Part shown: piece by piece, positions 324-27,117 of the stretch
How the letters are laid out: each line of letters starts with the position of its first letter
Position numbering within the stretch: position 1 is the first letter of the stretch
Assembly: GCA_965200315.1 (NCBI GenBank)
Contig: OZ241362.1
Coordinates: forward strand, 2,944,001 to 3,008,000
Origin: Candidatus Latescibacterota bacterium
GTDB lineage: Bacteria; Latescibacterota; UBA2968; UBA8231
Length of the DNA stretch: 64,000 nt
Reading direction: 5' to 3'
The notes under the pieces: generated by a model
The model's input: the letters and a program-made list of their open reading frames with translations, nothing else
The model's database searches: none
What the model was told of the DNA's origin: nothing
Translations under genes and position numbers: made by a program

Positions 324-857
324 TCAACTAGGCGGCTCTAAGTTCCAAGTCCCTATAATGCCCATTATCATATCCCACTGTTTGTCGTCCATCGCCTCTA
401 CCAGAGCGAGCAGGCGTAACACATCGCGCTCCTTCTGTTTCTTGCGCGCCCGAGCAACGACCTCTAACCACGGTTGATCCCCGAGTAGAGCCAAGATTTC
501 TGGATTAGATAGTATCCCTAAGAGGGCTGGGTCCAAGGACTCTTGGCTAGACAGGAGCTTGTTGACTACTGGGTCCGACAGCGAGCGCATCATCTTGCCA
601 TAGAGCGCACGTCCTTCCTCCGAACTCGCCTTGGCCTCATAAGCAGCAATCAACACTCTGTTAGAGTCGAGTTCCAAAACCTCGGCCAACTTGAGACACA
701 CTTCGTCGGAAGGTACCTTCTCCCCTTTCTCAATTTGTCCTATATAGGTTGCCCATACGCCCTTGGGCCTTCGCGTCGTCACGAGTTGTTGGGCCAGTCT
801 CTGCTGGCTCAGGTGGGCTTGTAACCGGGCCTCCTTGATCATTTCTGCAAACTGCAT
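324..857 (-). CDS. XRE/Cro-C1 family HTH transcriptional regulator
   Basis: N-terminal MIKEARLQAHLSQQRLA...YIGQIEKGEKVPSDEVCLKLAEVL is an HTH_3 pattern; GAGGGA SD upstream. Confidence 0.85.
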   Translation of the reverse strand: MQFAEMIKEARLQAHLSQQRLAQQLVTTRRPKGVWATYIGQIEKGEKVPSDEVCLKLAEVLELDSNRVLIAAYEAKASSEEGRALYGKMMRSLSDPVVNKLLSSQESLDPALLGILSNPEILALLGDQPWLEVVARARKKQKERDVLRLLALVEAMDDKQWDMIMGIIGTWNLEPPS

Positions 858-896: not shown

Positions 897-925
897 AAGA
901 TACGCACACACTTGTAAGTGTGCAA
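897..925 (-). promoter_or_regulatory. Sigma70-type promoter of the XRE gene, with palindromic operator in its spacer
   Basis: Minus strand TTGCAC(925-920)-N17-TATCTT(902-897); palindrome GCACAC-N8-GTGTGC at 904-923. Confidence 0.55.
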
Positions 926-961: not shown

Positions 962-990
962 TTGACAACACAATCTAGCGTGTGTATTTT
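962..990 (+). promoter_or_regulatory. Sigma70-type promoter of the candidate ncRNA, with operator in its spacer
   Basis: TTGACA(962-967)-N17-TATTTT(985-990); ACAC-N8-GTGT at 968-983. Confidence 0.65.
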
Positions 991-996
991 TGTTTC

Positions 997-1200
997 TAAA
1001 TAGAGTGTGGCGGTCCGCTGAGCGTGGCCAAAGTCTTGATACGCGAAGCTCGGATTTCCCTTTTCGGGCCGTTGAGATCTTCAAAACTACCTCCCCACAC
1101 CGCCTCGTTTGAGGATCTCACTTGCTCTTCAAGATCACACCATCTGGCCGCCATACTCTTTATTTTATAAGCAGCCCATTTTTAGATGGGCTGCTTTTTT
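997..1200 (+). ncRNA. Candidate structured small RNA, family not recognised
   Basis: Nested helices 1002-1015/1146-1159 (14 bp), 1033-1039/1129-1135, 1048-1054/1063-1069 and 1073-1085/1108-1120 (13 bp). All non-Watson-Crick pairs are G-U on the + strand. Bounded by a promoter and an intrinsic terminator. Confidence 0.65.
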
Positions 1201-1206
1201 ATTTTT
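1169..1206 (+). terminator. Intrinsic terminator
   Basis: AAGCAGCCCAT-ttttag-ATGGGCTGCTT followed by a T run. Confidence 0.85.
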
Positions 1207-1233
1207 AGCCTTTACGCCGATTCTTTATACGCC

Positions 1234-2349
1234 ATGCGTATCTGTATGGTCGCCTTCACCGACCTGAACTTCGACTACCGCATCTACCGAGAGGCTACTT
1301 CGCTGCGCCGCGCTGGTCACCAAGTCGTCATTGTCGCCTCCTCTTTCAACTCAGCCCCTCTCAAGGGATGGGACGATTTTGAAATCTATCCGATTCCGCT
1401 AGACCGGAGCCGCTCCCTGCGCCGCCTCTACCCTTTGTTTTGGCAACGGGCCTATCCCCTGCTCGTCGAGACCCAGCCGGATGCTTATCACGCCCACGAC
1501 TTAGACTCGCTCTGGCCAGCAGTACGAGCGGCACAACGACTAGATCGGCCTATCATCTATGATGCACACGAATTTTGGACCGAGCAGTCCTCACTGGTCA
1601 ACCGACCGCTGATGCGGTCCTGCTGGCGTTTGCTAGAGAGACGGCTGATAAGACGGGTAGATCGCGTCATAACCGTCAGCGGGTCTATCGCCCAATCGCT
1701 CAGGGAGCGTTACCGCCTTGACGAGGTCGTCGTTCTGCGCAATTTGCCACTGTTTCGCCACAAGGTCCAAAGCAACCTGATACGCGAAACGCTAAATTTG
1801 CCCGATGATCGCCCCGTTGCTCTCTACCAAGGAGGATTTCTCACCGAAAATGGCTTGCGCGAGCAAATTGAGGCCGCCGCGGGACTGGACGCCGCCCTAG
1901 TTCTAATTGGGGACGGGCCGAGTGAACAGGCCCTGAGGAACCAAGTTCGCGCTGCGAGCCTAGAGGACCGGGTCTATTTTATTCCTCGGGTGCCCTTTTA
2001 CCAACTTCACAATTATACTTGCTCGGCCGACTTGGGGCTGTGTCTGATCAAAGGCACAGGCAAGAGCTTCTATTACTCGCTGCCCAACAAGCTTTTCGAG
2101 TATATGATGGCCGGATTACCCGTTCTAGCTAGCAACTTTCCTGAAATGGAGCGCATTGTCCGCAAAACGCGCACCGGAGCCACGGTCGATCCAACCAATA
2201 TAGCCGCTATTCGAGATCAGATCGCCGCTTTTTTGGACAATGCAGCACAGCGAGAGACGTGCGTCAAGGCGAGTTTGCAGGCGGCACGGCACTATAACTG
2301 GGAACGAGAAGCCGCTCAACTTACCCAGCTTTACGAAACCTTAACATGA
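1234..2349 (+). CDS. Glycosyltransferase family 4
   Basis: YHAHD, IIYDAHE and SLPNKLFEYMMAGLPVLAS motifs; start moved to ATG 1234 (MRICMV). Confidence 0.9.
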   Translation: MRICMVAFTDLNFDYRIYREATSLRRAGHQVVIVASSFNSAPLKGWDDFEIYPIPLDRSRSLRRLYPLFWQRAYPLLVETQPDAYHAHDLDSLWPAVRAAQRLDRPIIYDAHEFWTEQSSLVNRPLMRSCWRLLERRLIRRVDRVITVSGSIAQSLRERYRLDEVVVLRNLPLFRHKVQSNLIRETLNLPDDRPVALYQGGFLTENGLREQIEAAAGLDAALVLIGDGPSEQALRNQVRAASLEDRVYFIPRVPFYQLHNYTCSADLGLCLIKGTGKSFYYSLPNKLFEYMMAGLPVLASNFPEMERIVRKTRTGATVDPTNIAAIRDQIAAFLDNAAQRETCVKASLQAARHYNWEREAAQLTQLYETLT

Positions 2350-3275
2350 GTGCCCCGCTGACGCTTAGCGTCGTAATACCTACCTATGACGAGCCTGAGC
2401 GCCTCGAAGCAGCACTTAAGAGCCTGTCGCAGCAAGATTACCCTCGCGAAGCGACCCAAATCATCGTGGTGGACGATGCCTCCCCCCATTTGGACGCCGA
2501 GCGGCTGTATGCGGCGATCGCGCCGTTAGAGTTGCAGCTACTCCGCAACGAACAGAACCAGGGACGCGCTCGGGCGCGCAACGCTGCACTTCGGGTCGCC
2601 AGCGGCGATATCGTCGTCTTTCTCGACAGTGACATGACCGTCGGCACCAATTTTCTCCGCGCCCATGCCCAACGGCATCAAAACCACGCGGAAGCCGTTT
2701 TTGTCGGCAATATCCGCTTTGCCAGTGAAATTCCCGCTACCTCCCTGACTCGCTATCTCGAAGGGAGGGGGGTCCATAGGGTCAATGCGGATAAGACCAT
2801 ACCTTTCAAGTGCTTCGTCACCGGCAACTCCTCGGTTCGCCGGTCATCCCTGCTGCGCGTAGGATTTTTCGACGAGGACCTCACGGCTTATGGGGGCGAA
2901 GATCTAGAATTAGGGTATCGCCTCCATTTGGCGGGTATTCCGCTTTGCTATGCCCCTGAAGCCCTGTCGCACCACAATCACTTGCGTTCGTTGGAGCCGC
3001 TCTGCCGCCTGATGCAGACCTACGGCAGCAAGTCAATCCCGATCCTTTTAAAAAAGCATCCCGAGCTCGACGCCGTACTCCGGTTGGACTTTATCAGGGC
3101 CGCTGCTTTCTCCCCTCGGCGGCTCGCGCTCCAGCTAGTCCTGTTGTCGCCGATTCACTACCCAATTCGCTGGGTGACCCGCTGGCTTGTGAAAATCTAT
3201 GTCCCGGATCTGTTTTTTAGTTATTTGTTCTGGTCCAGCCGTACGCGGGGTTACATGCGTCCTCTAAACAAATAA
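2346..3275 (+). CDS. Glycosyltransferase family 2
   Basis: SVVIPTY, IIVVDDAS, FLDSD (DxD), GGEDLELG. Confidence 0.9.
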   Translation: MSAPLTLSVVIPTYDEPERLEAALKSLSQQDYPREATQIIVVDDASPHLDAERLYAAIAPLELQLLRNEQNQGRARARNAALRVASGDIVVFLDSDMTVGTNFLRAHAQRHQNHAEAVFVGNIRFASEIPATSLTRYLEGRGVHRVNADKTIPFKCFVTGNSSVRRSSLLRVGFFDEDLTAYGGEDLELGYRLHLAGIPLCYAPEALSHHNHLRSLEPLCRLMQTYGSKSIPILLKKHPELDAVLRLDFIRAAAFSPRRLALQLVLLSPIHYPIRWVTRWLVKIYVPDLFFSYLFWSSRTRGYMRPLNK

Positions 3276-3303
3276 AGAATAACGACTTATATTATATAGC
3301 CTT

Positions 3304-4134
3304 ATGGGTACGCACTATCCCCGTTTCTCCCAAGTTCTCCGCGTAGCTCTACCTGCGCTCCTGCTAGCCCAATTCGTAGTTTGGCCCATCGTCGGCCTTT
3401 TATCTCTACATGCTGGTATTGTTGCCGCCGAATGTACCCTTTTGTGGTTTGTTGCTCTTTATATTCGCCGTCATCGCCTAATTGCCGAAGACCTGCTTCT
3501 GTTCAACGCCACACCGGCTGCGACCCTGTTGCTGACAATCCCGGCGACTATTTGCTGTAGCCTCGTAATCGCCGAACTCGACTTGTATATGGCCTATCTT
3601 CTCGGCCTGATAGACCTGTCCATGCCGCTGTCTTTGAAGAAAAACCTGCTAGAGATTCAGATTGTCCGCGGACTAGCGGAGATCCCGAAGGGACTGCTAA
3701 CACTAGTGCTAGTACCTGTGTTTTGCGAAGAGCCCCTCTTCCGAGGACTTGTGTTCACGAGCCTTTGCGCCCATTATGGGCCGCGCTGGGCGCTAGGCGG
3801 TTCAGCCCTGCTGTTTGCCATTTCTCACTTCAACCCTTGGCAAATGATCCCTCTCTTCCTCTTTGGGCTCTTCCTCGGCGCTTTAGTTTACTGGACTCAC
3901 AGCATCTATCCTGCCATGCTCGCCCACGCGGTCAACAACTTGACTTCGATGACTGGGATCAACTTGCACACTTACTTAGGCATAGATGGCCTCGGTCCCT
4001 CCCAACATCTCCCCATGCCCTTGGCCTTGCTCGCCGGCTTACTCCTGCTTGCCGGCCTCCTGCTTATCAGCCGTCAACGTACCATTATGCCGCTGTTGAC
4101 TAGGCGGGAATTCGCTCCGCCCGATTACAACTGA
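3304..4134 (+). CDS. CPBP (CAAX protease/Abi) family intramembrane metalloprotease
   Basis: EEPLFRG, FAISH and AHAVNN motifs; multiple TM segments. Confidence 0.85.
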   Translation: MGTHYPRFSQVLRVALPALLLAQFVVWPIVGLLSLHAGIVAAECTLLWFVALYIRRHRLIAEDLLLFNATPAATLLLTIPATICCSLVIAELDLYMAYLLGLIDLSMPLSLKKNLLEIQIVRGLAEIPKGLLTLVLVPVFCEEPLFRGLVFTSLCAHYGPRWALGGSALLFAISHFNPWQMIPLFLFGLFLGALVYWTHSIYPAMLAHAVNNLTSMTGINLHTYLGIDGLGPSQHLPMPLALLAGLLLLAGLLLISRQRTIMPLLTRREFAPPDYN

Positions 4135-4182
4135 ACTGTTTAGAGGAGAGGCAGTTACATAGAAAAACGTTCCCTGATTAAA

Positions 4183-5052
4183 TCAGCTCAGTACCTTCGC
4201 TACTGTTTCCCCAATTTCCGCAGGACTCTCACAGATGTGAATGCCTGCTTCCCGCATCGCCGCCATCTTGTCCTCGGCCGTCCCCTTACCCCCTGAAATA
4301 ATAGCTCCTGCATGTCCCATCCGCCGCCCCGGAGGTGCCGTGCGCCCCGCGATAAAGCCAACAACAGGCTTGTCGTAGCACTCTTTGATATAGGCAGCCG
4401 CTTCTTCTTCAGCCGTGCCCCCGATCTCGCCGATCATTACGACCGCATCGGTCTCGGGGTCGTCCTTAAAGAGTGCCAGCGCGTCCACAAAGCGCGTACC
4501 GATGATTGGGTCGCCGCCAATGCCGATAGCTGTGGACTGGCCTAGGCCCTGCTCAGTGAGCTGCCCCACGGCTTCATAGGTCAGCGTTCCACTGCGCGAG
4601 ATAATGCCCACGCGACCGGGCTGGTGGATAAAGTGAGGCATAATGCCGATTTTGCACTTTCCCGGCGAGATTACGCCGGGGCAATTAGGCCCGATCAGTC
4701 GAGTGGAGCGCACCTGTACATAATGGTAGGCTTTAACCATGTCACTCACGGGGATGTTCTCGGTGATACAGATGACTAGCTCTATACCGGCATCGGCCGC
4801 TTCCATGATGGCGTCAGCGGCAAAGGGAGCTGGCACAAAGATGATTGAAGCATTGGCTCCCGAGGCCTCAACGCCTTCGGCGACCGTGTTAAACACCGGA
4901 ACGCCTTCAAATTCTTGGCCGCCTTTGCGAGGTGTTGCTCCCCCGACCACTTTAGTGCCGTACTCCAGCATTTGTCGCGTGTGAAATGATCCCTCCGACC
5001 CCGTAATCGCCTGTACGAAGACCTTGGTGTTTTCGTCGATTAAAACGCTCAT
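4183..5052 (-). CDS. sucD: Succinyl-CoA ligase alpha subunit
   Basis: [25 protein letters not shown]; start set at ATG 5052. Confidence 0.97.
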
Positions 5053-5065
5053 CCCTGTATTCCTT

Positions 5066-6223
5066 TTACCGAATAGCCGCCTTGACCATCGCCGCCGCGT
5101 CTTGCAGCCCGTGTCCAACGGCAAAGTCCATGTCGGAGTTTGCCAGCATCTCGGCGGCCACATCTGCGTTGGTACCAGCCAGCCGCACGACGATCGGCAC
5201 ATTGATTTCGATATTTTTGCGCGCCTCAATCACGCCAGCGGCCACGCGGTCGCAGCGCACAATGCCTCCGAAGATATTGATGAGTATGGCCTTTACATTC
5301 GGGTCGGAGAGTAAGATTCGGAAGCCATTTTCCACGGTCTCAGCGCTGGCCCCCCCGCCTACGTCCAGAAAATTGGCCGGCTCAGCACCGGACAGCTTGA
5401 TAATGTCCATGGTGGCCATCGCCAGTCCGGCACCGTTGACCATACAGCCGATATTGCCGTCGAGTTTGATGTAGTTCAGATCGTATTTGGCCGCTTTGAC
5501 CTCCAACTCCTCTTCTTCATCTAGATCGCGCATTTCCGCTAAATCAGAGTGGCGGAAGAGTGCGTTGTCGTCTAGGTCTATTTTGGCATCTAGCGCCAAA
5601 AGCTGCCCATCGGCGGTCGCCACCAAAGGATTGACCTCGACCAGTGAGCAGTCGGCATCGACATAAGCTCTGTAGAGACTGAGGATAAAACTGGCTGCTT
5701 GGCGAACCTGCTTGCCCTCGAAACCAAGCCCAAAGGCTAGGCGCATCGCTTGGAATGCCTGTAGCCCTACGCTAGGATCAACCGTTTCCTTGAGAATTTT
5801 TTCTGGGGTCGCCGCGGCGACCTCTTCGATCGCAACGCCGCCCTCTTGGCTGGCCATAATCACTGGCTTGCTCTGGGCCCGGTCGAGCGTGATGCCCAGA
5901 TAAAACTCGCGTTCTATATCCGAGGCCTGCTCCACTAGGACTTGCTTGACCTTTTGGCCTTCCGGGCCGGTCTGGTGCGTAACGAGCTGCATGCCGAGAA
6001 TCTCGCTGGCCGCTTGGAGAGCCTCTTCGGGATTAGCAGCCAGTTTGACGCCTCCGCCCTTGCCGCGACCTCCAGCGTGGATTTGGGCCTTAACTACGAC
6101 CTTTCCACCCAATCCAGCGGCCACGCGTTCGGCTTGATCGGCTGTGGTGGCCACGTCGCCACTTGGTACGGCGACTTGGTACTGGTGCAAAATTTTTTTG
6201 GCTTGATATTCGTGAATTTTCAT
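5066..6223 (-). CDS. sucC: Succinyl-CoA ligase beta subunit
   Basis: [31 protein letters not shown]. Confidence 0.97.
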
Positions 6224-6380
6224 AAGCGTTATCTATTTAATTAGGTGAAAGGAACGCAAAAGAGTATAAAAACCTTCCCCCACCAGCAAGGCGATCTAGG
6301 AAGAACCAAACTAGGGCTGTTGATCGTTGGGAAAGTCCCGTAATATTCAGGCACATCCAAAGACCCCAAGGAGGTAACCC

Positions 6381-7133
6381 GTGAAGATTTTGTTAGTCGG
6401 CGGGGCTGGCCACGTCGGCACCTGCACTACTCCCTACCTTAGACGCCATCACGATCTGCGCGTGTTGGACCTAGCCAAGCCTCGGCATGAGGTAGAATAC
6501 ATTGAAGGCTCTATCGCCGACCCGGAGGCCCTCGCCTGCGCCCTAGATGGGGTGGATGCCTTCATCAACTTGACCATGAAGAGCGGCCAAGGCGGCCTCG
6601 ACAACCACCAGACCGAGCCCCAGATCGTCGATAATTACACGGTCAACTGTATGGGGCTGCACCTGCTCCTGTACACTGCTTGGAGGCTAGGTATCAAAAG
6701 AGGCGTTCACACCTCCACCATGAGCACCCACTATCGCGCCCGTTCCTATTATCCGTCCGAGGAGGAAGTACCACTTGATAGCCCTAGTGTGTACGGCTTC
6801 ACTAAGGGGCTCGCCGAGGGCATTTGTCACTACTTCGCCCGCCAATTTGACCTGAACTTGGCGGTCCTTCGCATTACTGGTCCGCGCACTCGAGAGCAAT
6901 TCCTAGAACAAGCCAAAAATCCACCACACTACCCTCCCGGCGGTCTTTACTTTACCGACGAGGAAGATTTGGCCAACGCCTATCTAGCGGCTCTAGACTA
7001 CGTTTACACTGGTCATGGCCGCTGCGACGCCTTCTTCATATCGGGCGACGCCGACCACCGCGAGATGAACATGTCCAAAGCACGATCTATTTTGGGCTGG
7101 GAGCCTAAATCGCACCTGATGCTGGAGGAGTGA
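6381..7133 (+). CDS. NAD-dependent epimerase/dehydratase family protein
   Basis: GGAGHVG Rossmann motif, YGFTK (YxxxK); SD AGGAGG. Confidence 0.85.
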   Translation: MKILLVGGAGHVGTCTTPYLRRHHDLRVLDLAKPRHEVEYIEGSIADPEALACALDGVDAFINLTMKSGQGGLDNHQTEPQIVDNYTVNCMGLHLLLYTAWRLGIKRGVHTSTMSTHYRARSYYPSEEEVPLDSPSVYGFTKGLAEGICHYFARQFDLNLAVLRITGPRTREQFLEQAKNPPHYPPGGLYFTDEEDLANAYLAALDYVYTGHGRCDAFFISGDADHREMNMSKARSILGWEPKSHLMLEE

Positions 7134-7218
7134 GAATCCCACGCGGATAAGTATGTTCCTAATGACTGCAAACTCTGAACAAAATCTGCCGAAATCCCCA
7201 ATCACCTAGGCACAAGTC

Positions 7219-7250
7219 AAAAAACAGGCCCAACCATTTGGTGGAGCCTG
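7219..7250 (-). terminator. Probable intrinsic terminator after rpmA
   Basis: Minus strand CAGGCTCCACC-aaat-GGTTGGGCCTG-TTTTTT. Confidence 0.6.
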
Positions 7251-7298
7251 CTTCATTCACTGTTGGACTATTCGCGTTGTGATTTAGTAACGCATTTC

Positions 7299-7553
7299 TT
7301 AGGCGGCGTAAACGTTCACCCGCTTGCCCTTCCTGCCAAAAGATTCAAATTTCACCTGCCCGTCAATGGTGGCGAAGAGCGTGTCATCCCCGCCCTTCTT
7401 GACGTTGACGCCCGGATGAATGCGCGTCCCGCGTTGCCGGACGATAATTGAGCCCGAGCGGACTTTCTCGCCACCAAAGCGTTTGACACCCAGACGCTGG
7501 GCATTGCTATCGCGCCCGTTTTTAGAACTGCCGACACCTTTTTTATGAGCCAT
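7299..7553 (-). CDS. rpmA: 50S ribosomal protein L27
   Basis: [16 protein letters not shown]...RLGVKRFGG. Confidence 0.98.
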
Positions 7554-7573
7554 AATACCTAATCCTTTCGCAC

Positions 7574-7891
7574 TCAGTTCGGGAGAACGATGTCCTCGAC
7601 CCGAATCTCTGTGTAATCTTGGCGGTGGCCGGTGCGCCGCCGGTATTTCTTGCGCCGTTTCTTCTTGAAAACGACAATCTTGTCGCCGCGACCATGGCCG
7701 ACGACCGTCGCCGAAACACTGGCCCCCTCGACCGTGGGACTGCCAACCCTAGTTTCGTCGTCGCCGGAAACCAGCAGGACGTCGGTAAATTCTTGGGTGC
7801 TACCTTCTTCGGCCTGAAGCCGAGGTACGCGCAGACACTGACCCTTGTCGACTTTGACCTGATGGCCGGCGATATTGACAACTGCATACAT
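7574..7891 (-). CDS. rplU: 50S ribosomal protein L21
   Basis: [14 protein letters not shown]...[19 protein letters not shown]; start 7891. Confidence 0.97.
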
Positions 7892-7972
7892 GAATTGCAC
7901 TCCTACGCTAAGACTGCACTGCTTCACAATCAACCAAGAAACTTTTAAAGATATAGGTCGGAATTTTTTCTG

Positions 7973-9496
7973 TCAAACTCGAAACTCGGCCGTCACATCT
8001 AGGCTGCGCTTGGTCGAGAAGAACCGATAGTCTTGGGGCCCCAACGTGGAATCGGTTTCTATTTGGAGGCGAGCTTTGGTCGCCTTGCGCAATGACTTGA
8101 GCCGTTCTTCGCGGTTTTCTAGCATATAGGTGGCCACCTCGGGATGGACCTTTAACACGTAGCGCCTTTCGCGGGTGGCTGCATAGGAACGCTGAAGCCA
8201 GCGTTCAATCCAAGTAAGGGTGGTGTCTGGCCCCATAATTCGGCCCGTGCCGCTGCAAATGGGACAAGGTTCACTATGAGTGTACAAGAGGTTTGGCCGG
8301 ACGCGCTGGCGCGTCATTTCGACCAAGCCAAACTCGCTTATGTGTGGGCTGATGGAGACCTTCGCCCGATCCCTTTTGAACTCCTCGACTAAGCAGTCAA
8401 CGACCTTTTTGCGGTTGCGCTCCTCGTTCATATCGATAAAATCGATGACGATAATACCGCCAATGTCGCGGAGCTTGAGCTGGCGGGCAATCTCACGAGC
8501 TGCCCTCAGATTGGTATTGAGATTGTTTTCCTCCTGATCGTCGGAGCCGAGGTAACGGGCTGAATTCACGTCGATAAAAGTCCCCGCCTCAGCGTAGTCG
8601 ATGACCAAGGCTCCGCCGCGGCGCAACCACACAGTGCGATTGGTCGCCTTCTCGATGTCTTCCTCAATGCTGAAGGCATCGAAAATGGGCCGACGATCCC
8701 GGTAAAGCTCCACCCTTTGGCGCAATTCAGGTGAAACTTGTCGCAAATAAGCCGTGATCTCTTTGTACAGCTCTTTGCTATCGACGACTAGTCGTTCCAC
8801 ATTGTCGGTGAACAAGTCGCGTATTATGCTGGAGGTCATGCCCATTTCCTTGTACACTAAGGCAGGTGCTTCGACCTTTCTGCTCGCCTTGGTCAGACGC
8901 TCGTGGTTTCTCACTAGCTGCTTCATATCGCGTTTGAACTCGCGATCACTCTGCCCCTGTCCTTCGGTGCGCACGATTACCGAGTAGCCATCGGGCTTGA
9001 TCCTAAATACCAGATCTCTCAGTCTTTTGCGTTCGTTTCGACTGGTGATTTTGCGCGAGACACCAACCCAGTTGCCTCCCGGAACCAACACCATAAAACG
9101 CCCCGGAAGCGATAGCTGAGTCGTCACACGGGCACCTTTGGTGCCGATAGGCTCTTTGGTGATTTGCACCAACACCTGTTCGCCCTTCTTGATAAGGTTT
9201 TGAATACTAGGATAACCGCGATGGCGAGTGCGGTGCCCGTTGCGCGCCCCATCAGTCTCTCCTCTATCCGCTTCTACCATATCGCGCACTTGGAGGAACG
9301 CGGTGCGGTCGTGGCCTATCTCGACAAAAGCGGCCTGTAATCCAGGCAAAACGGCCGTTGCAATCCCTTTGTATATATCCCCTACCGTCCGTTCGTTTTC
9401 GGGTCTTTCGATCCAGACTTCAGCTAGACGCCCAGCTTCCAAGATGGCAATACGGGATTCGTGAATTCCTTGGTTGATAAAAATTTCTGTTTGCAC
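7973..9496 (-). CDS. rng: Rne/Rng family ribonuclease (RNase G-like)
   Basis: S1 domain, IDVNS, RDIGGIIVIDFIDM, CPICSGTG Zn link. Confidence 0.92.
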   Translation of the reverse strand: MQTEIFINQGIHESRIAILEAGRLAEVWIERPENERTVGDIYKGIATAVLPGLQAAFVEIGHDRTAFLQVRDMVEADRGETDGARNGHRTRHRGYPSIQNLIKKGEQVLVQITKEPIGTKGARVTTQLSLPGRFMVLVPGGNWVGVSRKITSRNERKRLRDLVFRIKPDGYSVIVRTEGQGQSDREFKRDMKQLVRNHERLTKASRKVEAPALVYKEMGMTSSIIRDLFTDNVERLVVDSKELYKEITAYLRQVSPELRQRVELYRDRRPIFDAFSIEEDIEKATNRTVWLRRGGALVIDYAEAGTFIDVNSARYLGSDDQEENNLNTNLRAAREIARQLKLRDIGGIIVIDFIDMNEERNRKKVVDCLVEEFKRDRAKVSISPHISEFGLVEMTRQRVRPNLLYTHSEPCPICSGTGRIMGPDTTLTWIERWLQRSYAATRERRYVLKVHPEVATYMLENREERLKSLRKATKARLQIETDSTLGPQDYRFFSTKRSLDVTAEFRV

Positions 9497-9561
9497 GATC
9501 TGTCCTCACGCTTAGTAGTCATTATTAGTATCGGCGATTTCAAAGTCCTGATTATCGCCAT

Positions 9562-11409
9562 TCACTTGGCTTCTTCCGCGGCCAATACCCCCAGATACTG
9601 GTCTTGGTCTGCGAGCACCTCTATGGCCTTCGCTAGCTGTACATCCTCTTGCAATTCTTCGAGAAGTTGGGCCTTTCTGCCCTTGAAGCGCAAAATTAGT
9701 TCTCGACGTAAAGCACTCTTTATATAAGGCTCCAATTCGCTGCTATACCGCTGCTCCCACTCCTTTTTCACTGCTGCTCTTAGCTGATGGATCGACTCTT
9801 GTGCAGCCACACCCCAATCCATTTCCTCGGCCAAGTCCTCAAGTTCTTCTATTTCATTCAATCCTTTTTGGCCTTGGTCTAGGCTTTTGTCTTGGACGAA
9901 CTCCATAAAGCCCTCGACCATCTCATCGCTGACAGTCAGGTCTGGGTGTTCCTCGGCCCAAGACGAGTCGGTCGAGACATAATCTATGACAAAGTCGAAG
10001 AAGAGCCGGCGGCGCCCTAACTCTTGTACGTAGGGAGGAAATGGTTCCGACTCAACGCTAATATCGGGCTTAATCCCGCCGCCGAAGACCTTGCGACCGC
10101 GCTGGGTATAATACGTCCGGTTTGAAATAGTATCCGGCAAACCGGCCGCTCCCATCTTGGATTTACCCGCTAAATCGCCCAAACGGATCAGGAGAATGCT
10201 CTCTGCGGCCTCAGAATCCATATCAAAATGAGATTGGAGCGCAGAAAGGGCCTTAGTCCTATTCTCTGAACGCAAAATAAGGTCCATCACCAACTGATGC
10301 GGTAGTTCCTTGTCGCCAAACAGAACGCTATGTACGGGCTTGGCGATGTTCTGTTCGCGGTGAATACTGCGTCCACTGGGCGCGTAGTAGAGCGCCGTCG
10401 TCAGCTTTAAAGCACTAGCTTCCTCTTCACGTTCACGTAGGTCGAAAATGGTCTGTACCGAACCTTTGCCAAATGATGCCGCTCCGACAATTACACCTCG
10501 GTCGTTGTCTTGGATGGCTCCAGCAACGATTTCGGAGGCACTGGCGCTCCCCTCGTCAATTAGAACTACCAAGGGCACATTGTATGCAATAGAATGACGG
10601 CGGGAATACTTGACTTCTTCTCTCCGCCCGTCGCGTTCCCTAATCGAAACGATCGGCACCCCTTGGGGTAAAAACAAATCCGCAACTTGGGCGGCTTGAC
10701 TAAACAATCCTCCAGGATTTCCTCGCAGGTCTAAAATTAGCCCTTCAACCCGAGGGAGGCTTTTTATTGCCTCTTCCACTTCACTGGAGGTATGCTCGGA
10801 AAAACGCGTCTGGCGCATACTTATATAACCGATTTTTTCCGGGAGTTCCTCTACCAACACAACGCTCTTGATCGTGATTATCTCCCGTTGAATTTCAACT
10901 TCGTGCGGCGTGGCTCCCAAGTGGGGTGCGACCGAGATTGCAACCTTTGTGCCAGGTTCTCCGCGCAGCGTATTGACCACAGATTCAAGCTGCATATCCA
11001 AGGTACTTTTGCCCTCCACGGCGACGATCAAGTCGCCCGGTCTCAGCCCCGCCCGAAAGGCAGGAGTACCTTCAATAGGGGAAATTACCACGGGAAAGCG
11101 ATCTTTTATGCCAACCGTAATCCCCAATCCCTCGAACTTGCCCGTCGTGTCTTGGCGCAACTGGCGCAAACCCTCCTCGTCGTAATACTCGCTGTATGGA
11201 TCCAATTGGCCGAGCATGCCTTTGATGGCTGCGCTCATAACTTCCCCTTGGTCCAGAGGGGCGTAATAGTTTTCCAAAATGCGCGAATACACGGCTCCGA
11301 AACGCTCCCAACTGGCATTTACCTCCGCATACTGATCTTCCGTAGGCGCAGCTTGGATTGCGTTCGCACTTGCAAATAAAAAAATCAATCCGACTAAGAG
11401 GTGTCGCAT
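9562..11409 (-). CDS. S41 family carboxyl-terminal processing protease
   Basis: Signal peptide, PDZ domain, DLRGNPGG, SASASEI, SFGKGSVQ. Confidence 0.92.
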   Translation of the reverse strand: MRHLLVGLIFLFASANAIQAAPTEDQYAEVNASWERFGAVYSRILENYYAPLDQGEVMSAAIKGMLGQLDPYSEYYDEEGLRQLRQDTTGKFEGLGITVGIKDRFPVVISPIEGTPAFRAGLRPGDLIVAVEGKSTLDMQLESVVNTLRGEPGTKVAISVAPHLGATPHEVEIQREIITIKSVVLVEELPEKIGYISMRQTRFSEHTSSEVEEAIKSLPRVEGLILDLRGNPGGLFSQAAQVADLFLPQGVPIVSIRERDGRREEVKYSRRHSIAYNVPLVVLIDEGSASASEIVAGAIQDNDRGVIVGAASFGKGSVQTIFDLREREEEASALKLTTALYYAPSGRSIHREQNIAKPVHSVLFGDKELPHQLVMDLILRSENRTKALSALQSHFDMDSEAAESILLIRLGDLAGKSKMGAAGLPDTISNRTYYTQRGRKVFGGGIKPDISVESEPFPPYVQELGRRRLFFDFVIDYVSTDSSWAEEHPDLTVSDEMVEGFMEFVQDKSLDQGQKGLNEIEELEDLAEEMDWGVAAQESIHQLRAAVKKEWEQRYSSELEPYIKSALRRELILRFKGRKAQLLEELQEDVQLAKAIEVLADQDQYLGVLAAEEAK

Positions 11410-11411
11410 AA

Positions 11412-12053
11412 CTACTTTTTCTCCTCGGGAAACCACGACCACTGCCGACGCAGCGCATCCTGAATCCTTTCGGCTAGTTGATCTATTTCGAGCTGCGCGT
11501 CAAAAACCAAGCCTGTTGGATCTTTTTGGGCTATCTGTTGGTAGCCTCGGGAAACCTTCTCTTGTAGTACCATTCCTGTTTGCTCCAACCGATCCGCAAC
11601 ATCCCGCTGTCTCAGGCGAGCCCAAGCCACTTCTACAGGCAAGAGCAGATATATTGTCGCGTCCGGTAAACACTCCCCCACAGCCAACCGATTGACTTGT
11701 TCGATCACTTTTAGGTCCAAACCGCGCCCATACCCTTGATACGCTAGTGACGATGCAATATAGCGGTCGCAAATAACCACAGCTCCCCGGTTGAGCGACG
11801 GTGCGATCACCTCTTCTAGGTGCTGTGAGCGACTGGCTGCATAGAGGAACAATTCCGCCGTCGGGGATACACTCTCTAGGCTTGGATCGAGAACAAGCTG
11901 GCGAATCTTCTCTGCGACCGGCGTCCCGCCTGGCTCTCTGGTCAGTGTAACCGGAAGACCTGCTTGCCTTAAATGCGAGGCTAGCAGGCGGGATTGGGTT
12001 GTAGTTCCACTGCCATCAACTCCTTCAAATGCGATAAAATAACCCCGGGACAC
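11412..12053 (-). CDS. tmk: Thymidylate kinase
   Basis: FEGVDGSGTTTQ, REPGGT, DRYIASSLAYQG (P-loop Lys appears as Thr). Confidence 0.93.
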   Translation of the reverse strand: MSRGYFIAFEGVDGSGTTTQSRLLASHLRQAGLPVTLTREPGGTPVAEKIRQLVLDPSLESVSPTAELFLYAASRSQHLEEVIAPSLNRGAVVICDRYIASSLAYQGYGRGLDLKVIEQVNRLAVGECLPDATIYLLLPVEVAWARLRQRDVADRLEQTGMVLQEKVSRGYQQIAQKDPTGLVFDAQLEIDQLAERIQDALRRQWSWFPEEKK

Positions 12054-12072
12054 GACGGCAAGGAGTAGCTTA

Positions 12073-12690
12073 TTAGGACTGCTGGACAGAGGCGGGCGAA
12101 TTGGGACCTGATTTCAGCCTGTTGCGAATATGAGCGAGGCGCTCAACAACCGTATAGTTGGTCGTAACGGCCAATAAAACCAGCACGAAAACCAAACCTT
12201 GATGACCTATCAGGCTCCCTACGGCCAAGGCCGTTAGACGTTCTGGGCGCTGCATGAAGCCCACCTTGCAATCCTCGCCCAGCCCCTCTGCACGAGCCCT
12301 CACATAACTAACCATTAGCGAACCAGTAATTGCAAAAAAGAGGATCCCCGAGGGAATCCACTCATCGCGGCCAATCAAATACGCACCGATTCCAAAATAA
12401 ATAAATATCTCAGAGTAGCGATCTGTCGTCGAATCCAATAAGGCCCCAAACTTGGTCTCCTTGTGGCCCTCTCTTGCAACTTGTCCATCCAAGATGTCGC
12501 AGAGGCCCGCCACCATCATAATGAGAGCCCCCCATTGCAAGTAACCCTTGGCAAACGCCGCAGTTGCCCCCACGTTCATAACTAGCCCCATCAGCGTCAG
12601 CCAATCGGGCCTAAAGCCCAAGCGAATAAACAAATGCGCCAACGGCCTAAGGATGACCAGACACCACTCTTTCAGATACTTATCTAGCAA
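12073..12690 (-). CDS. CDP-alcohol phosphatidyltransferase family protein
   Basis: DILDGQVAR...GALLDSTTDR motif. Confidence 0.9.
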   Translation of the reverse strand: MLDKYLKEWCLVILRPLAHLFIRLGFRPDWLTLMGLVMNVGATAAFAKGYLQWGALIMMVAGLCDILDGQVAREGHKETKFGALLDSTTDRYSEIFIYFGIGAYLIGRDEWIPSGILFFAITGSLMVSYVRARAEGLGEDCKVGFMQRPERLTALAVGSLIGHQGLVFVLVLLAVTTNYTVVERLAHIRNRLKSGPNSPASVQQS

Positions 12691-12803
12691 AAAAGGACCT
12701 ATTTCGCAGACGATTGAGAACGACCATTGATAACCCTTGGCCTCGGAAACTACGTTAAAATATACTTGTTTTTTGCTTTTCTTCCAAAGGATTTACCGCA
12801 GAG

Positions 12804-12972
12804 TTTTCCACTTTCTTAAGAGCAAGTTTTCCACATCAAACCTCATCGTCTTTAACTTAGTACTTCGCTAAATTGTGGCCTATCTATTAGGAAAATTAGA
12901 CATATACGTCCCTCAAAGGGCCTAAATTTCACAATTCTTTTAATTTTTGGGTGTGGATAAGTATGTGTAAAA
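12804..12972. promoter_or_regulatory. DnaA-box cluster in an AT-rich intergenic region
   Basis: TTTTCCACT 12804, TTTTCCACA 12827, perfect TGTGGATAA 12952, TGTGTAAAA 12964. Confidence 0.55.
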
Positions 12973-13000
12973 CTACACTCGGAACGCCCGACAATAGCAA

Positions 13001-13606
13001 TTAGTAGAAAAGCCCCAATGCACTCTCCACCCGATCAGCCCTCCATGCCAACAACTCCGAATGAGCGGCATCTTTTTTAAGCGTCGAAAGAATCCAACCA
13101 TGAGGAGATAAATGCCTTTGTACTAAAGCAAGCAGTTTATCCGGAGAAGCCACGGCTCTCGCCGTCACCAAATCCGCGCACATTGGACTCAAGCTCTCTA
13201 TCCGCTCGTTTACAACCTCTATTCGTTCAAGCCCCACCGACCTTACAACTTCCTTGAGAAAGTGCGCCCGCTTCCTACTGCTTTCAACGAGAATAAAGTA
13301 GGCATTGGGAAGAGCTATTTTCAGAGGAATCGCCGGAAATCCAGCTCCTGATCCCAGATCCATAACCAGCCGATGCGGGAGACTTGCTACGACCGGAATC
13401 ATAGTCAACGCCTGTCCCAAGTGCTTGGTTGCTACGACGGACCGGTCTCGCCGAGAGACAAGGCCGACTCTTCTCGACCACCGACTCAAAATATATAGAT
13501 ATGTTTCCAGCTTAGGCCAGATAGCTTCAAAAGAACCAGAGAGAACGCTTTCTCTTTTCAATCTCTCAAAATCCTCCTGAATATCAGAGGGCAATTGAAC
13601 TACCAT
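13001..13606 (-). CDS. rsmG: 16S rRNA m7G527 methyltransferase
   Basis: DLGSGAGFPAIPL, VTARAV; position downstream of mnmE. Confidence 0.92.
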   Translation of the reverse strand: MVVQLPSDIQEDFERLKRESVLSGSFEAIWPKLETYLYILSRWSRRVGLVSRRDRSVVATKHLGQALTMIPVVASLPHRLVMDLGSGAGFPAIPLKIALPNAYFILVESSRKRAHFLKEVVRSVGLERIEVVNERIESLSPMCADLVTARAVASPDKLLALVQRHLSPHGWILSTLKKDAAHSELLAWRADRVESALGLFY

Positions 13607-26769: not shown

Positions 26770-26856
26770 GGAGGGTTAGACCTAATTGGTAAGGCAGCGG
26801 TCTTGAAAACCGCCGGGCTCACGCCCTTGAGGGTTCGAGTCCCTCACCCTCCGCCA
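26770..26856 (+). tRNA. tRNA-Ser(TGA)
   Basis: Acceptor GGAGGGT/ACCCTCC-GCCA; anticodon arm GCGGT-CT-TGA-AA-ACCGC; long variable arm. Confidence 0.95.
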
Positions 26857-26935
26857 TTTACCATATTTGATGCCGCCACAATCCCATCCCGTTTAGCGGT
26901 GGGAGCACGTCAAAAGTTTGTTTTGCAATGGTCGC

Positions 26936-27029
<94 letters not shown>

Positions 27030-27041
27030 ATTTTCGTTAGT

Positions 27042-27117
27042 TGCCCTCTAGCACAATTGGAAGTGCGCCTGACTCTGGATCAGGAGGTTCTAGGTTCGAG
27101 CCCTAGGGGGGCAGCCA
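27042..27117 (+). tRNA. tRNA-Gln(CTG)
   Basis: Acceptor TGCCCTC/GGGGGCA-GCCA; anticodon arm CCTGA-CT-CTG-GA-TCAGG. Confidence 0.95.

Follow-up and report, generated by a model that had tools for sequence, protein, structure and literature searches.

A family-specific structured RNA facing an XRE-family regulator in Latescibacterota, with a predicted base-pairing partner upstream of pentose phosphate genes

In enterobacteria, SgrR/SgrS, OxyR/OxyS and GcvA/GcvB are pairs in which a regulator and a small RNA (sRNA) are transcribed divergently. A system of another kind comes from Bacillus subtilis, where, in the part of the published account drawn on here, the C-rich sRNAs RoxS/RsaE and the sponge RosA are described as two RNAs with separate transcription factors and with processing involved (PMC8216469); a second account, again in the part drawn on here, has RoxS pairing with a 5' end (PMC5419742). 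Since the Latescibacterota are known only from metagenomes, gene regulation in this phylum is a blank. We describe here a locus of a Candidatus Latescibacterota bacterium (assembly GCA_965200315.1, contig OZ241362.1) in which, as in the SgrR/SgrS-type pairs, an RNA gene that has a promoter and a terminator of its own is transcribed away from the gene of its presumed controlling factor, in this case an XRE-family regulator. The window is the whole stretch of 64,000 nucleotides that was analyzed (positions 2,944,001 to 3,008,000 of the contig), and its numbering is used below except where noted. We give a probability of roughly 0.6 to the reading that the RNA is repressed by XRE, processed, and acts in trans by base-pairing, aimed at a leader of pentose phosphate genes.

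A first-pass annotation of this DNA, made from the sequence alone, had called the RNA unrecognised, and searches with Rfam 15 agree, in that no family, 6S included, matched it. At gathering scores the only matches in the window are three tRNAs, which form a gene cluster at 26770-27114 on the plus strand. When the threshold was relaxed to E <= 10 on 850-1300, only sub-threshold matches driven by the terminator were obtained, for example to STnc430 and PyrG_leader, and no riboswitch or leader family matched the RNA. The annotation was also right in seeing no SRP, tmRNA or RNase P signature. These identities were rejected, each of the three genes being located elsewhere in the 5.36-Mb single-contig genome. 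There was no match to 6S on 850-1300 at E <= 10 and none genome-wide at E <= 1; the Rfam 6S model exceeds its cut-off in 0 of 101 genomes of the phylum, so that this search has little power and the missing match carries little weight. A literature search on small and non-coding RNAs of Latescibacterota and on sRNAs in sponge-symbiont metatranscriptomes, supplementary files aside, found nothing relevant. The locus encodes a new structured RNA family, absent from Rfam, of a known kind.

The RNA promoter, of the sigma-70 type, lies at 962..990 on the plus strand and consists of TTGACA, 17 nt and TATTTT (10 of 12 matches in a promoter scan). The scan, which called 5 promoter-like sites over 300-2400 against 1.3 expected, thus places it exactly where the first-pass annotation had. 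The promoter block CTTGACAACACAATCTAGCGTGTGTAT is essentially unchanged across loci L001-L025. The structured core of ~160 nt follows at 997..1160 on the same strand and is defined by its fold, by the covariance model R1, by covariation and by high-depth RNA contigs; the 5' end at ~997 is taken from the position of the -10 box and the 3' end at ~1155-1160 from contig ends. Behind the core, at 1169..1202 (plus strand), the scan finds an intrinsic terminator, made up of a 12-bp stem (1169-1196) and a T run, in which the changes seen in relatives keep the stem paired. The strong terminator that had been claimed at 1169-1200 is therefore real; its end at 1200 agrees with the T run, although the stem itself stops at 1196. 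Possessing an intergenic promoter and a terminator, both conserved, the RNA has its own transcription unit, with the terminator absent in the distant loci L064 and L067. To this extent the earlier description of a stand-alone regulatory RNA is apt, but a glycosyltransferase gene begins 34 nt past the terminator, and in L064 and L067 no terminator stands between the two.

A similar qualification applies to the size of the RNA. In the window the closing stem, P1, comes directly after the promoter, as had been proposed for an RNA of ~160 nt that starts just downstream of it. In most genera, by contrast, 70-90 nt separate P1 from the promoter, and in the distant genera another palindrome lies in this interval. 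With this spacing the ~160-nt core must come from excision out of a longer transcript, and, as far as comparison of these sequences can tell, the conserved unit would have to be the P1-closed core, processed from longer transcripts.

Folding of the plus strand from 995 to 1200 yields a minimum free energy (MFE) of -81.9 kcal/mol, with a z-score of -7.20 that was equalled by 0 of 200 shuffles. For the minus strand of the same stretch z is -3.96, and the centroid is different and poorly defined. Our recomputation returns the four helices of the first-pass annotation at identical coordinates, all on the plus strand: the 14-bp closing stem P1 (1002-1015/1146-1159), a 7-bp stem (1033-1039/1129-1135), the 7-bp hairpin P4 with a conserved C-rich loop (1048-1054/1063-1069) and the hairpin P5 (1073..1120), whose 13-bp stem (1073-1085/1108-1120) carries a 22-nt apical loop (1086-1107). 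The six non-Watson-Crick pairs in these helices are G-U on the plus strand, every one as claimed; in the whole MFE structure, which adds small helices at 1024-1026/1136-1138 and 1043-1046/1122-1125, G-U pairs make up 8 of 64. The overall shape, supported by covariation, is a long irregular stem leading to a three-way junction with two hairpins. The P5 loop is unpaired in the MFE and consensus folds and nearly invariant family-wide, and its stretch CCTCCCCACACCGCCTCGT (1090..1108, plus strand) is unchanged in 30 of 30 close relatives. The letters of the P4 loop, likewise, do not change anywhere in the 30-sequence alignment.

The first-pass annotation had suggested looking for covariation among relatives. 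When 39 sequences were aligned to R1, a model of 159 positions and 48 pairs, double changes were found in 23 of the 48 pairs, compared with 6.4 +/- 1.8 after shuffling, and 0 of 500 shuffles reached 23. Sliding the partners by 1-3 columns left 6-11 double-change pairs, so that the signal stands well above both controls. In this alignment 97.3% of cells are paired. P5 contributes double changes in 8 of its 13 pairs (99.2% of cells paired) and P4 in 1 pair (98.9%); among the 14 pairs of P1 (96.7%), 3 show double changes, 9 only one-sided changes, and 2 never vary. Because the R1 alignment was fitted to the model, the test was repeated on 27 diverse sequences that were aligned with plain MAFFT and folded with RNAalifold. 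This recovered P1, P3, P4 and P5, with compensation in 21 of 38 pairs, but not the poorly aligned middle part. When only close relatives are compared, 6 of 58 pairs show compensation. Two loci, L023 and L025, carry a 10-nt tandem duplication of the P1 3' strand (columns 166-175 of the close-relative alignment), which provides two alternative partners for the 5' strand. A small protein was considered as a product of the region and rejected: a minus-strand frame is free of stops in many close relatives, but 5 of 39 sequences have stops in it and there are frame shifts, and no reading frame is conserved across the 39 RNA sequences.

By BLAST, 28 of 30 other genomes of the genus contain one copy each of the RNA, 82-96% identical, and the two genomes without a match are 58% and 77% complete. 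R1 likewise detects a single copy in 40 of the 63 genomes sampled from one Latescibacterota family, and it gave 0 matches in 87 genomes of 13 other families of the phylum. The RNA is family-specific and single-copy. On one side of it lies the XRE gene (324..857, minus strand; 177 aa; Pfam HTH_3). On the other side is the gene for a GT4 glycosyltransferase (1234..2349, plus strand), assigned from Pfam, NCBIfam and synteny, which is a possible recipient of read-through; the genes for a GT2 glycosyltransferase (2346-3275) and for a CPBP protease (3304-4134) come next, both recognized by Pfam and NCBIfam. In 25 of the 30 RNA loci all four genes are present in the order upstream gene, XRE (minus strand), RNA, GT4, GT2, and XRE and GT4 accompany the RNA at 30 of 30. 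The order XRE, RNA, GT4, GT2 persists as GT4 identity falls from 94% to ~54%. R1 also matches an RNA at 14 of 19 more distant XRE loci; the five without a match (L065, L066, L068, L070 and L073) have an XRE that is 37-39% identical or a chance match. In L071 and L072 the RNA is beside XRE and GT4 is absent within ~1 kb, and in L061 GT4 is ~275 nt from the RNA. Inspection of the regions upstream of XRE orthologues, another step that the annotation had proposed, thus shows an RNA conserved beside XRE across the family. No Shine-Dalgarno-like stretch precedes the GT4 start (window 1197-1236), which is 34 nt past the terminator stem, and the same is true of zwf behind the partner element described below; yet the 16S rRNA tail has the usual CCTCC. 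Translation starts at GT4 and zwf may not be reliant on Shine-Dalgarno pairing.

The XRE protein has an N-terminal helix-turn-helix (HTH) of the Cro/cI type (Pfam HTH_3, E 6.9e-09) and no other Pfam match. A single-sequence structure prediction was useless (pLDDT 45), and an AF2 model from 16 homologues reached a pLDDT of 83.6. Against the PDB this model matches through the HTH only (P22 c2, 434 repressor, SinR, ClgR), and Foldseek superimposes the HTH on P22 c2 and the 434 repressor with an rmsd of 1.0-1.5 over 68 columns. The recognition region of the HTH, GVWxTYxGQIEKGEKVPSDE, is invariant or nearly so among the 16 homologues, down to 37% identity. The C-terminal helical part of ~100 aa (window 324-620) is also conserved and gave no Pfam, NCBIfam or PDB fold match; presumably it serves in signal sensing or oligomerisation.

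Palindromes occupy both of the divergent promoters. A putative XRE promoter was placed by eye at 897..925 on the minus strand (-35 at 925-920, a 17-nt spacer, -10 at 902-897) and was missed by the scan because its -35 has 3 of 6 matches only. Its spacer contains the operator-like palindrome O_A, CACAC-N6-GTGTG (907..922), one of 3 in the genome. A second operator-like palindrome, O_B (968..985), reads ACAC-N8-GTGT, with N6 in distant genera, and fills the spacer between the -35 and -10 boxes of the RNA promoter. ACAC-N6-GTGT is found at the place equivalent to O_A in 11 of 13 intergenic regions, with an N10 variant there in L064, and L071 has a palindrome at this place only. Counted from the first T of TTGACA, a site of the O_B type starts 6 nt further on in 11 of 13 regions, L071 and L067 being without a strict match. 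Overall, ACAC-N6/8/10-GTGT is present in 13 of 13 intergenic regions, with 57 overlapping matches compared with 0.13 in shuffled sequence. The palindromes occupy fixed places ~60-68 bp apart, the first in the spacer of the XRE promoter, the second in that of the RNA promoter and, where distant genera are concerned, a third downstream of the RNA promoter. An operator that fills a promoter spacer implies repression, and from the arrangement of these sites we infer that XRE would repress the RNA promoter through the candidate palindromic operators. The annotation had pictured a repressor facing the RNA, with the latter in the position of a cro-like gene, and the palindromes inside both promoter spacers back this picture. 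A genome-wide regulon of XRE operators was considered and rejected: the 18-nt operator core of the RNA promoter occurs only once in the genome, and the 3 occurrences of CACAC-N6-GTGTG in 5.36 Mb are at about chance level.

Twenty public sequencing runs, of which 14 are recorded as RNA, hold part of 860-1300, and the contigs of four RNA runs (X1, X2, X5 and X7) from three studies were compared over 300-2400. In X1 and X2, which belong to one study, contigs of 36-60 nt inside 1033-1153 have word depths of 1,200-13,362. Summed depth bins in the RNA core reach 12,368-40,139 in these runs, compared with 185-267 for bin 1152-1222 and with depths of 7.5-43.8 for long contigs over XRE and GT4. The contig depths of the RNA body are thus hundreds of times higher than those of its flanks in this study, with the reservation that contig depth is a poor measure of expression and that contigs are unreliable as to ends, strand and level. 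In X5 and X7, from the two other studies and with contigs 90-95% alike, depth is flat (~20-40 and 8-9, respectively) and equal in RNA and flanks. Contig ends tagged with adapter sequence fall at 1023-1033 (read-2 adapter) and 1153-1155 (read-1 adapter), and this orientation fits short inserts from plus-strand RNA, if the library was dUTP-stranded. We take these data as a strong hint, not a measurement, of a very abundant core RNA without the terminator hairpin, which is probably trimmed from the abundant species. The first-pass annotation had expected metatranscriptomes to contain a discrete plus-strand transcript of ~200 nt ending at about 1200. High-depth contigs over the core in one study speak for such a transcript; the abundant species, however, seems to be without the terminator hairpin, and there was no enrichment in two studies.

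A scan of the genome for the complement of the P5 loop returned, as the best site, a perfect 15-nt match at C1:2302240-2302254 in the organism's own genome, outside the window. A 15-nt match somewhere in 5.4 Mb is not rare, with a roughly estimated chance of 0.1-0.4 per genome, and the weight of the match between the loop and this seed rests on its location and conservation. As for location, the seed is part of an element with a promoter and a terminator hairpin (C1:2302233-2302286) that lies between a divergent epimerase gene and zwf. As for conservation, the 20-nt 5' part of this partner element is unchanged in all 25 genus loci (own genome and 24 others). Searching with a model of it, R2, recovered the element from 30 of 30 genus genomes and from 7 of 8 of genus g20, and by inspection it was recognized in g4, g24, g18, g7, g17, g3 and g26, where a TTGACA promoter and one or two hairpins accompany it every time. 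Immediately behind it comes zwf in the own genome, in 3 loci of g20 and in 1 of g7, and transaldolase in 4 of 4 loci tested (g18, g17, g3 and g24). These two genes are both part of the pentose phosphate pathway.

For the 15 genomes in which both RNAs are present, the RNAduplex energies all lie between -33.8 and -43.5 kcal/mol, compared with -15.9 +/- 3.2 for 1000 shuffles, the best of which reached -28.6 kcal/mol. About 17 consecutive loop and seed positions can pair in 16 of 16 tabulated genomes from 7 genera, when wobbles and up to one mismatch are allowed; G161, of an eighth genus and outside the 16, has a loop and seed that are canonical by eye. Genus g3 has a loop in which one C has become U and a seed in which the facing G has become A, one compensatory double change that is a single event in one genus and that a shared DNA motif explains equally well. 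Three other changes, each on one side, result in G-U wobbles. In genus g18 (G100 and G120) a U-to-A change in the seed creates an A-A mismatch with the loop, and in the window's own clade one loop/seed position is a mismatch or bulge. Unless P5 opens, the closed 22-nt loop cannot accommodate a helix of 17-21 bp; a pairing surface of ~17-21 nt displayed by a hairpin loop differs from the short seeds of known sRNAs and may require structural rearrangement of the large RNA. RNAcofold of both RNAs showed no gain; this method cannot place an intermolecular helix in a hairpin loop, and its null result therefore says nothing.

The partner is not found wherever the family has been sampled. Five near-complete family genomes are without the exact seed; four of these have no R1 match either, and the fifth, G159, is of genus g6, in which R1 matched 0 of 2. 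In g2, g22, g21, g5 and G036 no partner was found despite the presence of the RNA, in some cases with an altered loop, and searches with the altered loops of G036, G031 and G115 as queries gave no convincing partner in those genomes. Weak matches to R2 or to the pattern in G099, G113, G036, G031, G115, G124, G095, G034, G116, G120 (second site), G101, G139 and G126 were rejected as GC-rich coding-like sequence.

Several further sequences related to the loop or the seed were encountered. Genome G130 has the partner element twice (L272 and L273), with near-identical flanks on two contigs of one MAG, which may reflect either a genuine duplication or an artefact of assembly or binning. In three species of the divergent subclade of the genus (L110, L111 and L112, from G017, G015 and G024, respectively) a second intergenic locus holds a 23-nt copy of the loop sequence at ~975-1000, beside a two-way terminator and between the gene for a SlyD-like isomerase and a convergent gene for an AraC-type response regulator. 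One strand of this copy would be a further site for the G-rich partner, and the other a second perfect partner for the loop; blastn found no counterpart of the locus in the window's genome. That genome does contain, at C1 ~2364965-2365080 and at 1807900-1808015 on the minus strand (L278 and L279), two paralogous elements of ~115 nt with a conserved tail and a hairpin, the G-rich arm of which is seed-like, with 13-14 nt complementary to the loop, and the C-rich arm loop-like. They have no Rfam match at E <= 0.1.

These observations can be assembled into the following mechanism, which we favor. A strong sigma-70 promoter would drive a primary transcript, and XRE would block it via the spacer palindrome. 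The primary transcript would be trimmed to a stable core of ~160 nt, closed by the 14-bp stem, in which the larger hairpin, P5, displays its C-rich loop of 22 nt. This loop would pair in trans with the G-rich 5' end of a predicted short transcript or leader upstream of zwf or transaldolase. Depending on how the pairing acts, the small RNA may be sequestered, as by a sponge, the 5' end of the leader may be protected, or termination may be altered by attenuation. The pairing would in this way tie pentose phosphate expression, or the availability of that small RNA, to the signal sensed by XRE.

The match between loop and seed could have a different origin, namely a double-stranded DNA site shared by the two loci and bound by one DNA-binding protein, with the RNA acting in some other manner. 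In the genus the seed does sit in a CACAC-N6-GTGTG palindrome, one of 3 in the genome and built like the operator-like site at the XRE promoter, and the paired change in g3 might equally be one motif variant present at both sites. However, outside the genus the left (5') half of the palindrome is lost and the 15-nt seed is kept, which argues for RNA pairing rather than for a DNA operator. Moreover, across genera there are 4-5 positions at which the two copies are not the same, and 3-4 of them give G-U wobbles, for which the rough probability without pairing is p ~0.05; wobble changes preserve RNA pairing and not DNA identity, and so count against a common DNA motif. One copy, finally, coincides exactly with the unpaired apical loop of a hairpin that covariation supports, and the other with the 5' end of a predicted transcript. 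We consider a shared DNA site unlikely. A proposal that accepts the complementarity but gives it another meaning is that the RNA is a diverged form of 6S, or resembles 6S in sequestering a protein, with the complementary small transcript serving as a genome-encoded release RNA. Since SRP RNA, RNase P RNA and tmRNA are found elsewhere, 6S is the one housekeeping RNA unaccounted for. Such an identity would agree with an RNA of ~160 nt that has a long closing stem, is present once per genome, is apparently processed at its ends and has RNA contigs of very high depth, and also with the near-invariance of the P1 sequence itself, expected of a protein-binding or processing site. But no 6S-type model matches the locus at E <= 10, a search that is weak phylum-wide, and the fold has a three-way junction, with P4 on the 5' side and 2-5 unpaired bases on the 3' side, in place of a two-sided central bubble. 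The RNA is moreover limited to one family, with 0 of 87 genomes elsewhere in the phylum, and a dedicated repressor with two or three operators would be atypical. Its most conserved part is an apical loop with a conserved complement in trans; we know of no such feature in 6S RNAs. Taken together, a 6S identity appears quite improbable.

The position of the RNA ahead of the glycosyltransferase genes raises the question of whether it might instead be the cis-acting leader of that operon, a riboswitch-like attenuator or an element of processive antitermination, with the abundant fragment as the stable remnant of terminated leaders. The GT4 start is on the same strand and no separate promoter was called for it, and the gene order is kept over the whole range of GT4 identity. 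In L064 and L067, where the intervening terminator is missing, the RNA is part of the GT4 5' UTR. In addition, one contig from an RNA library bridges 1124-2400; it is of low depth, and it may be DNA. Several features are nevertheless hard to reconcile with a leader. By inspection of the close-relative alignment the terminator is an independent hairpin behind an A/U-rich linker of varying length and sequence, and no alternative pairing between terminator and RNA body is visible. L071 and L072 keep the RNA with no GT4 within ~1 kb, the GT4 of L061 is at some distance, no riboswitch or leader family matches, and the invariant loop and its conserved trans complement would be left unexplained. We therefore regard a cis leader as very unlikely, and return to the reading of a trans-acting RNA that pairs with a pentose phosphate leader.

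A more elaborate version of this reading can be entertained, which we offer as a speculation that is rather doubtful in its entirety. The two RNAs would form a switch, in which release of XRE fills the cell with the RNA, the loop captures the pentose phosphate leader and resets the flux of NADPH and sugar phosphates, and read-through feeds the glycosyltransferase operon. If this were true, uncultivated sponge symbionts throughout the family would use RNA to couple their central carbon flux with the making of surface polysaccharide. Should the link to zwf and transaldolase alone be correct, these symbionts may tune redox and sugar flux post-transcriptionally. The locus presents a complete circuit that can be tested in vitro, with a putative repressor and its candidate operators, a structured RNA of high abundance and a specific partner, conserved as well, where the pentose phosphate pathway begins, and it offers a rare computational case of covariation between two separate loci. 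The abundance of the RNA could also make it a handy marker of the activity of these bacteria in sponge and coral metatranscriptomes.

How does this locus compare with systems already described? The outward form is that of a phage cI/Cro switch, with divergent promoters, a short control region, several palindromes (for which binding is here predicted), an XRE-type HTH protein and one operator-like site at the regulator's own promoter. Unlike such a switch, it has a non-coding RNA as the partner transcript and not a cro-like gene, its operators are ~60-68 bp apart rather than adjacent, and it is chromosomal, with family-wide synteny and no phage genes nearby. Like 6S RNA (RF00013), the RNA is a single-copy molecule of that size with a long closing stem, apparently processed and highly abundant; it differs in that the model does not match, there is no central bubble, its distribution is family-restricted, and the key part is an apical loop with a trans-encoded complement. 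The RoxS/RosA system, in the part of its description drawn on here (PMC8216469), resembles the present one in combining a C-rich RNA of central metabolism with a separately encoded partner RNA, the pairing being predicted in our case. There is no homology, the phylum is different and, unlike the RosA sponge as presented there, the G-rich partner immediately precedes pentose phosphate genes, of which it may be the leader. With the SgrR/SgrS-type pairs there is no relation in sequence or in Rfam. The likeness to them, apart from the layout of the genes, lies in a trans-acting base-pairer, here proposed, with a link to sugar or redox metabolism. The regulator, in contrast, is of the XRE/Cro-cI type, with 2-3 regularly spaced palindromes, and is placed to repress rather than to activate; the RNA is, on our reading, a processed rod-plus-junction molecule of ~160 nt; and its 22-nt hairpin loop, with ~17 complementary positions, is far longer than the usual seeds.
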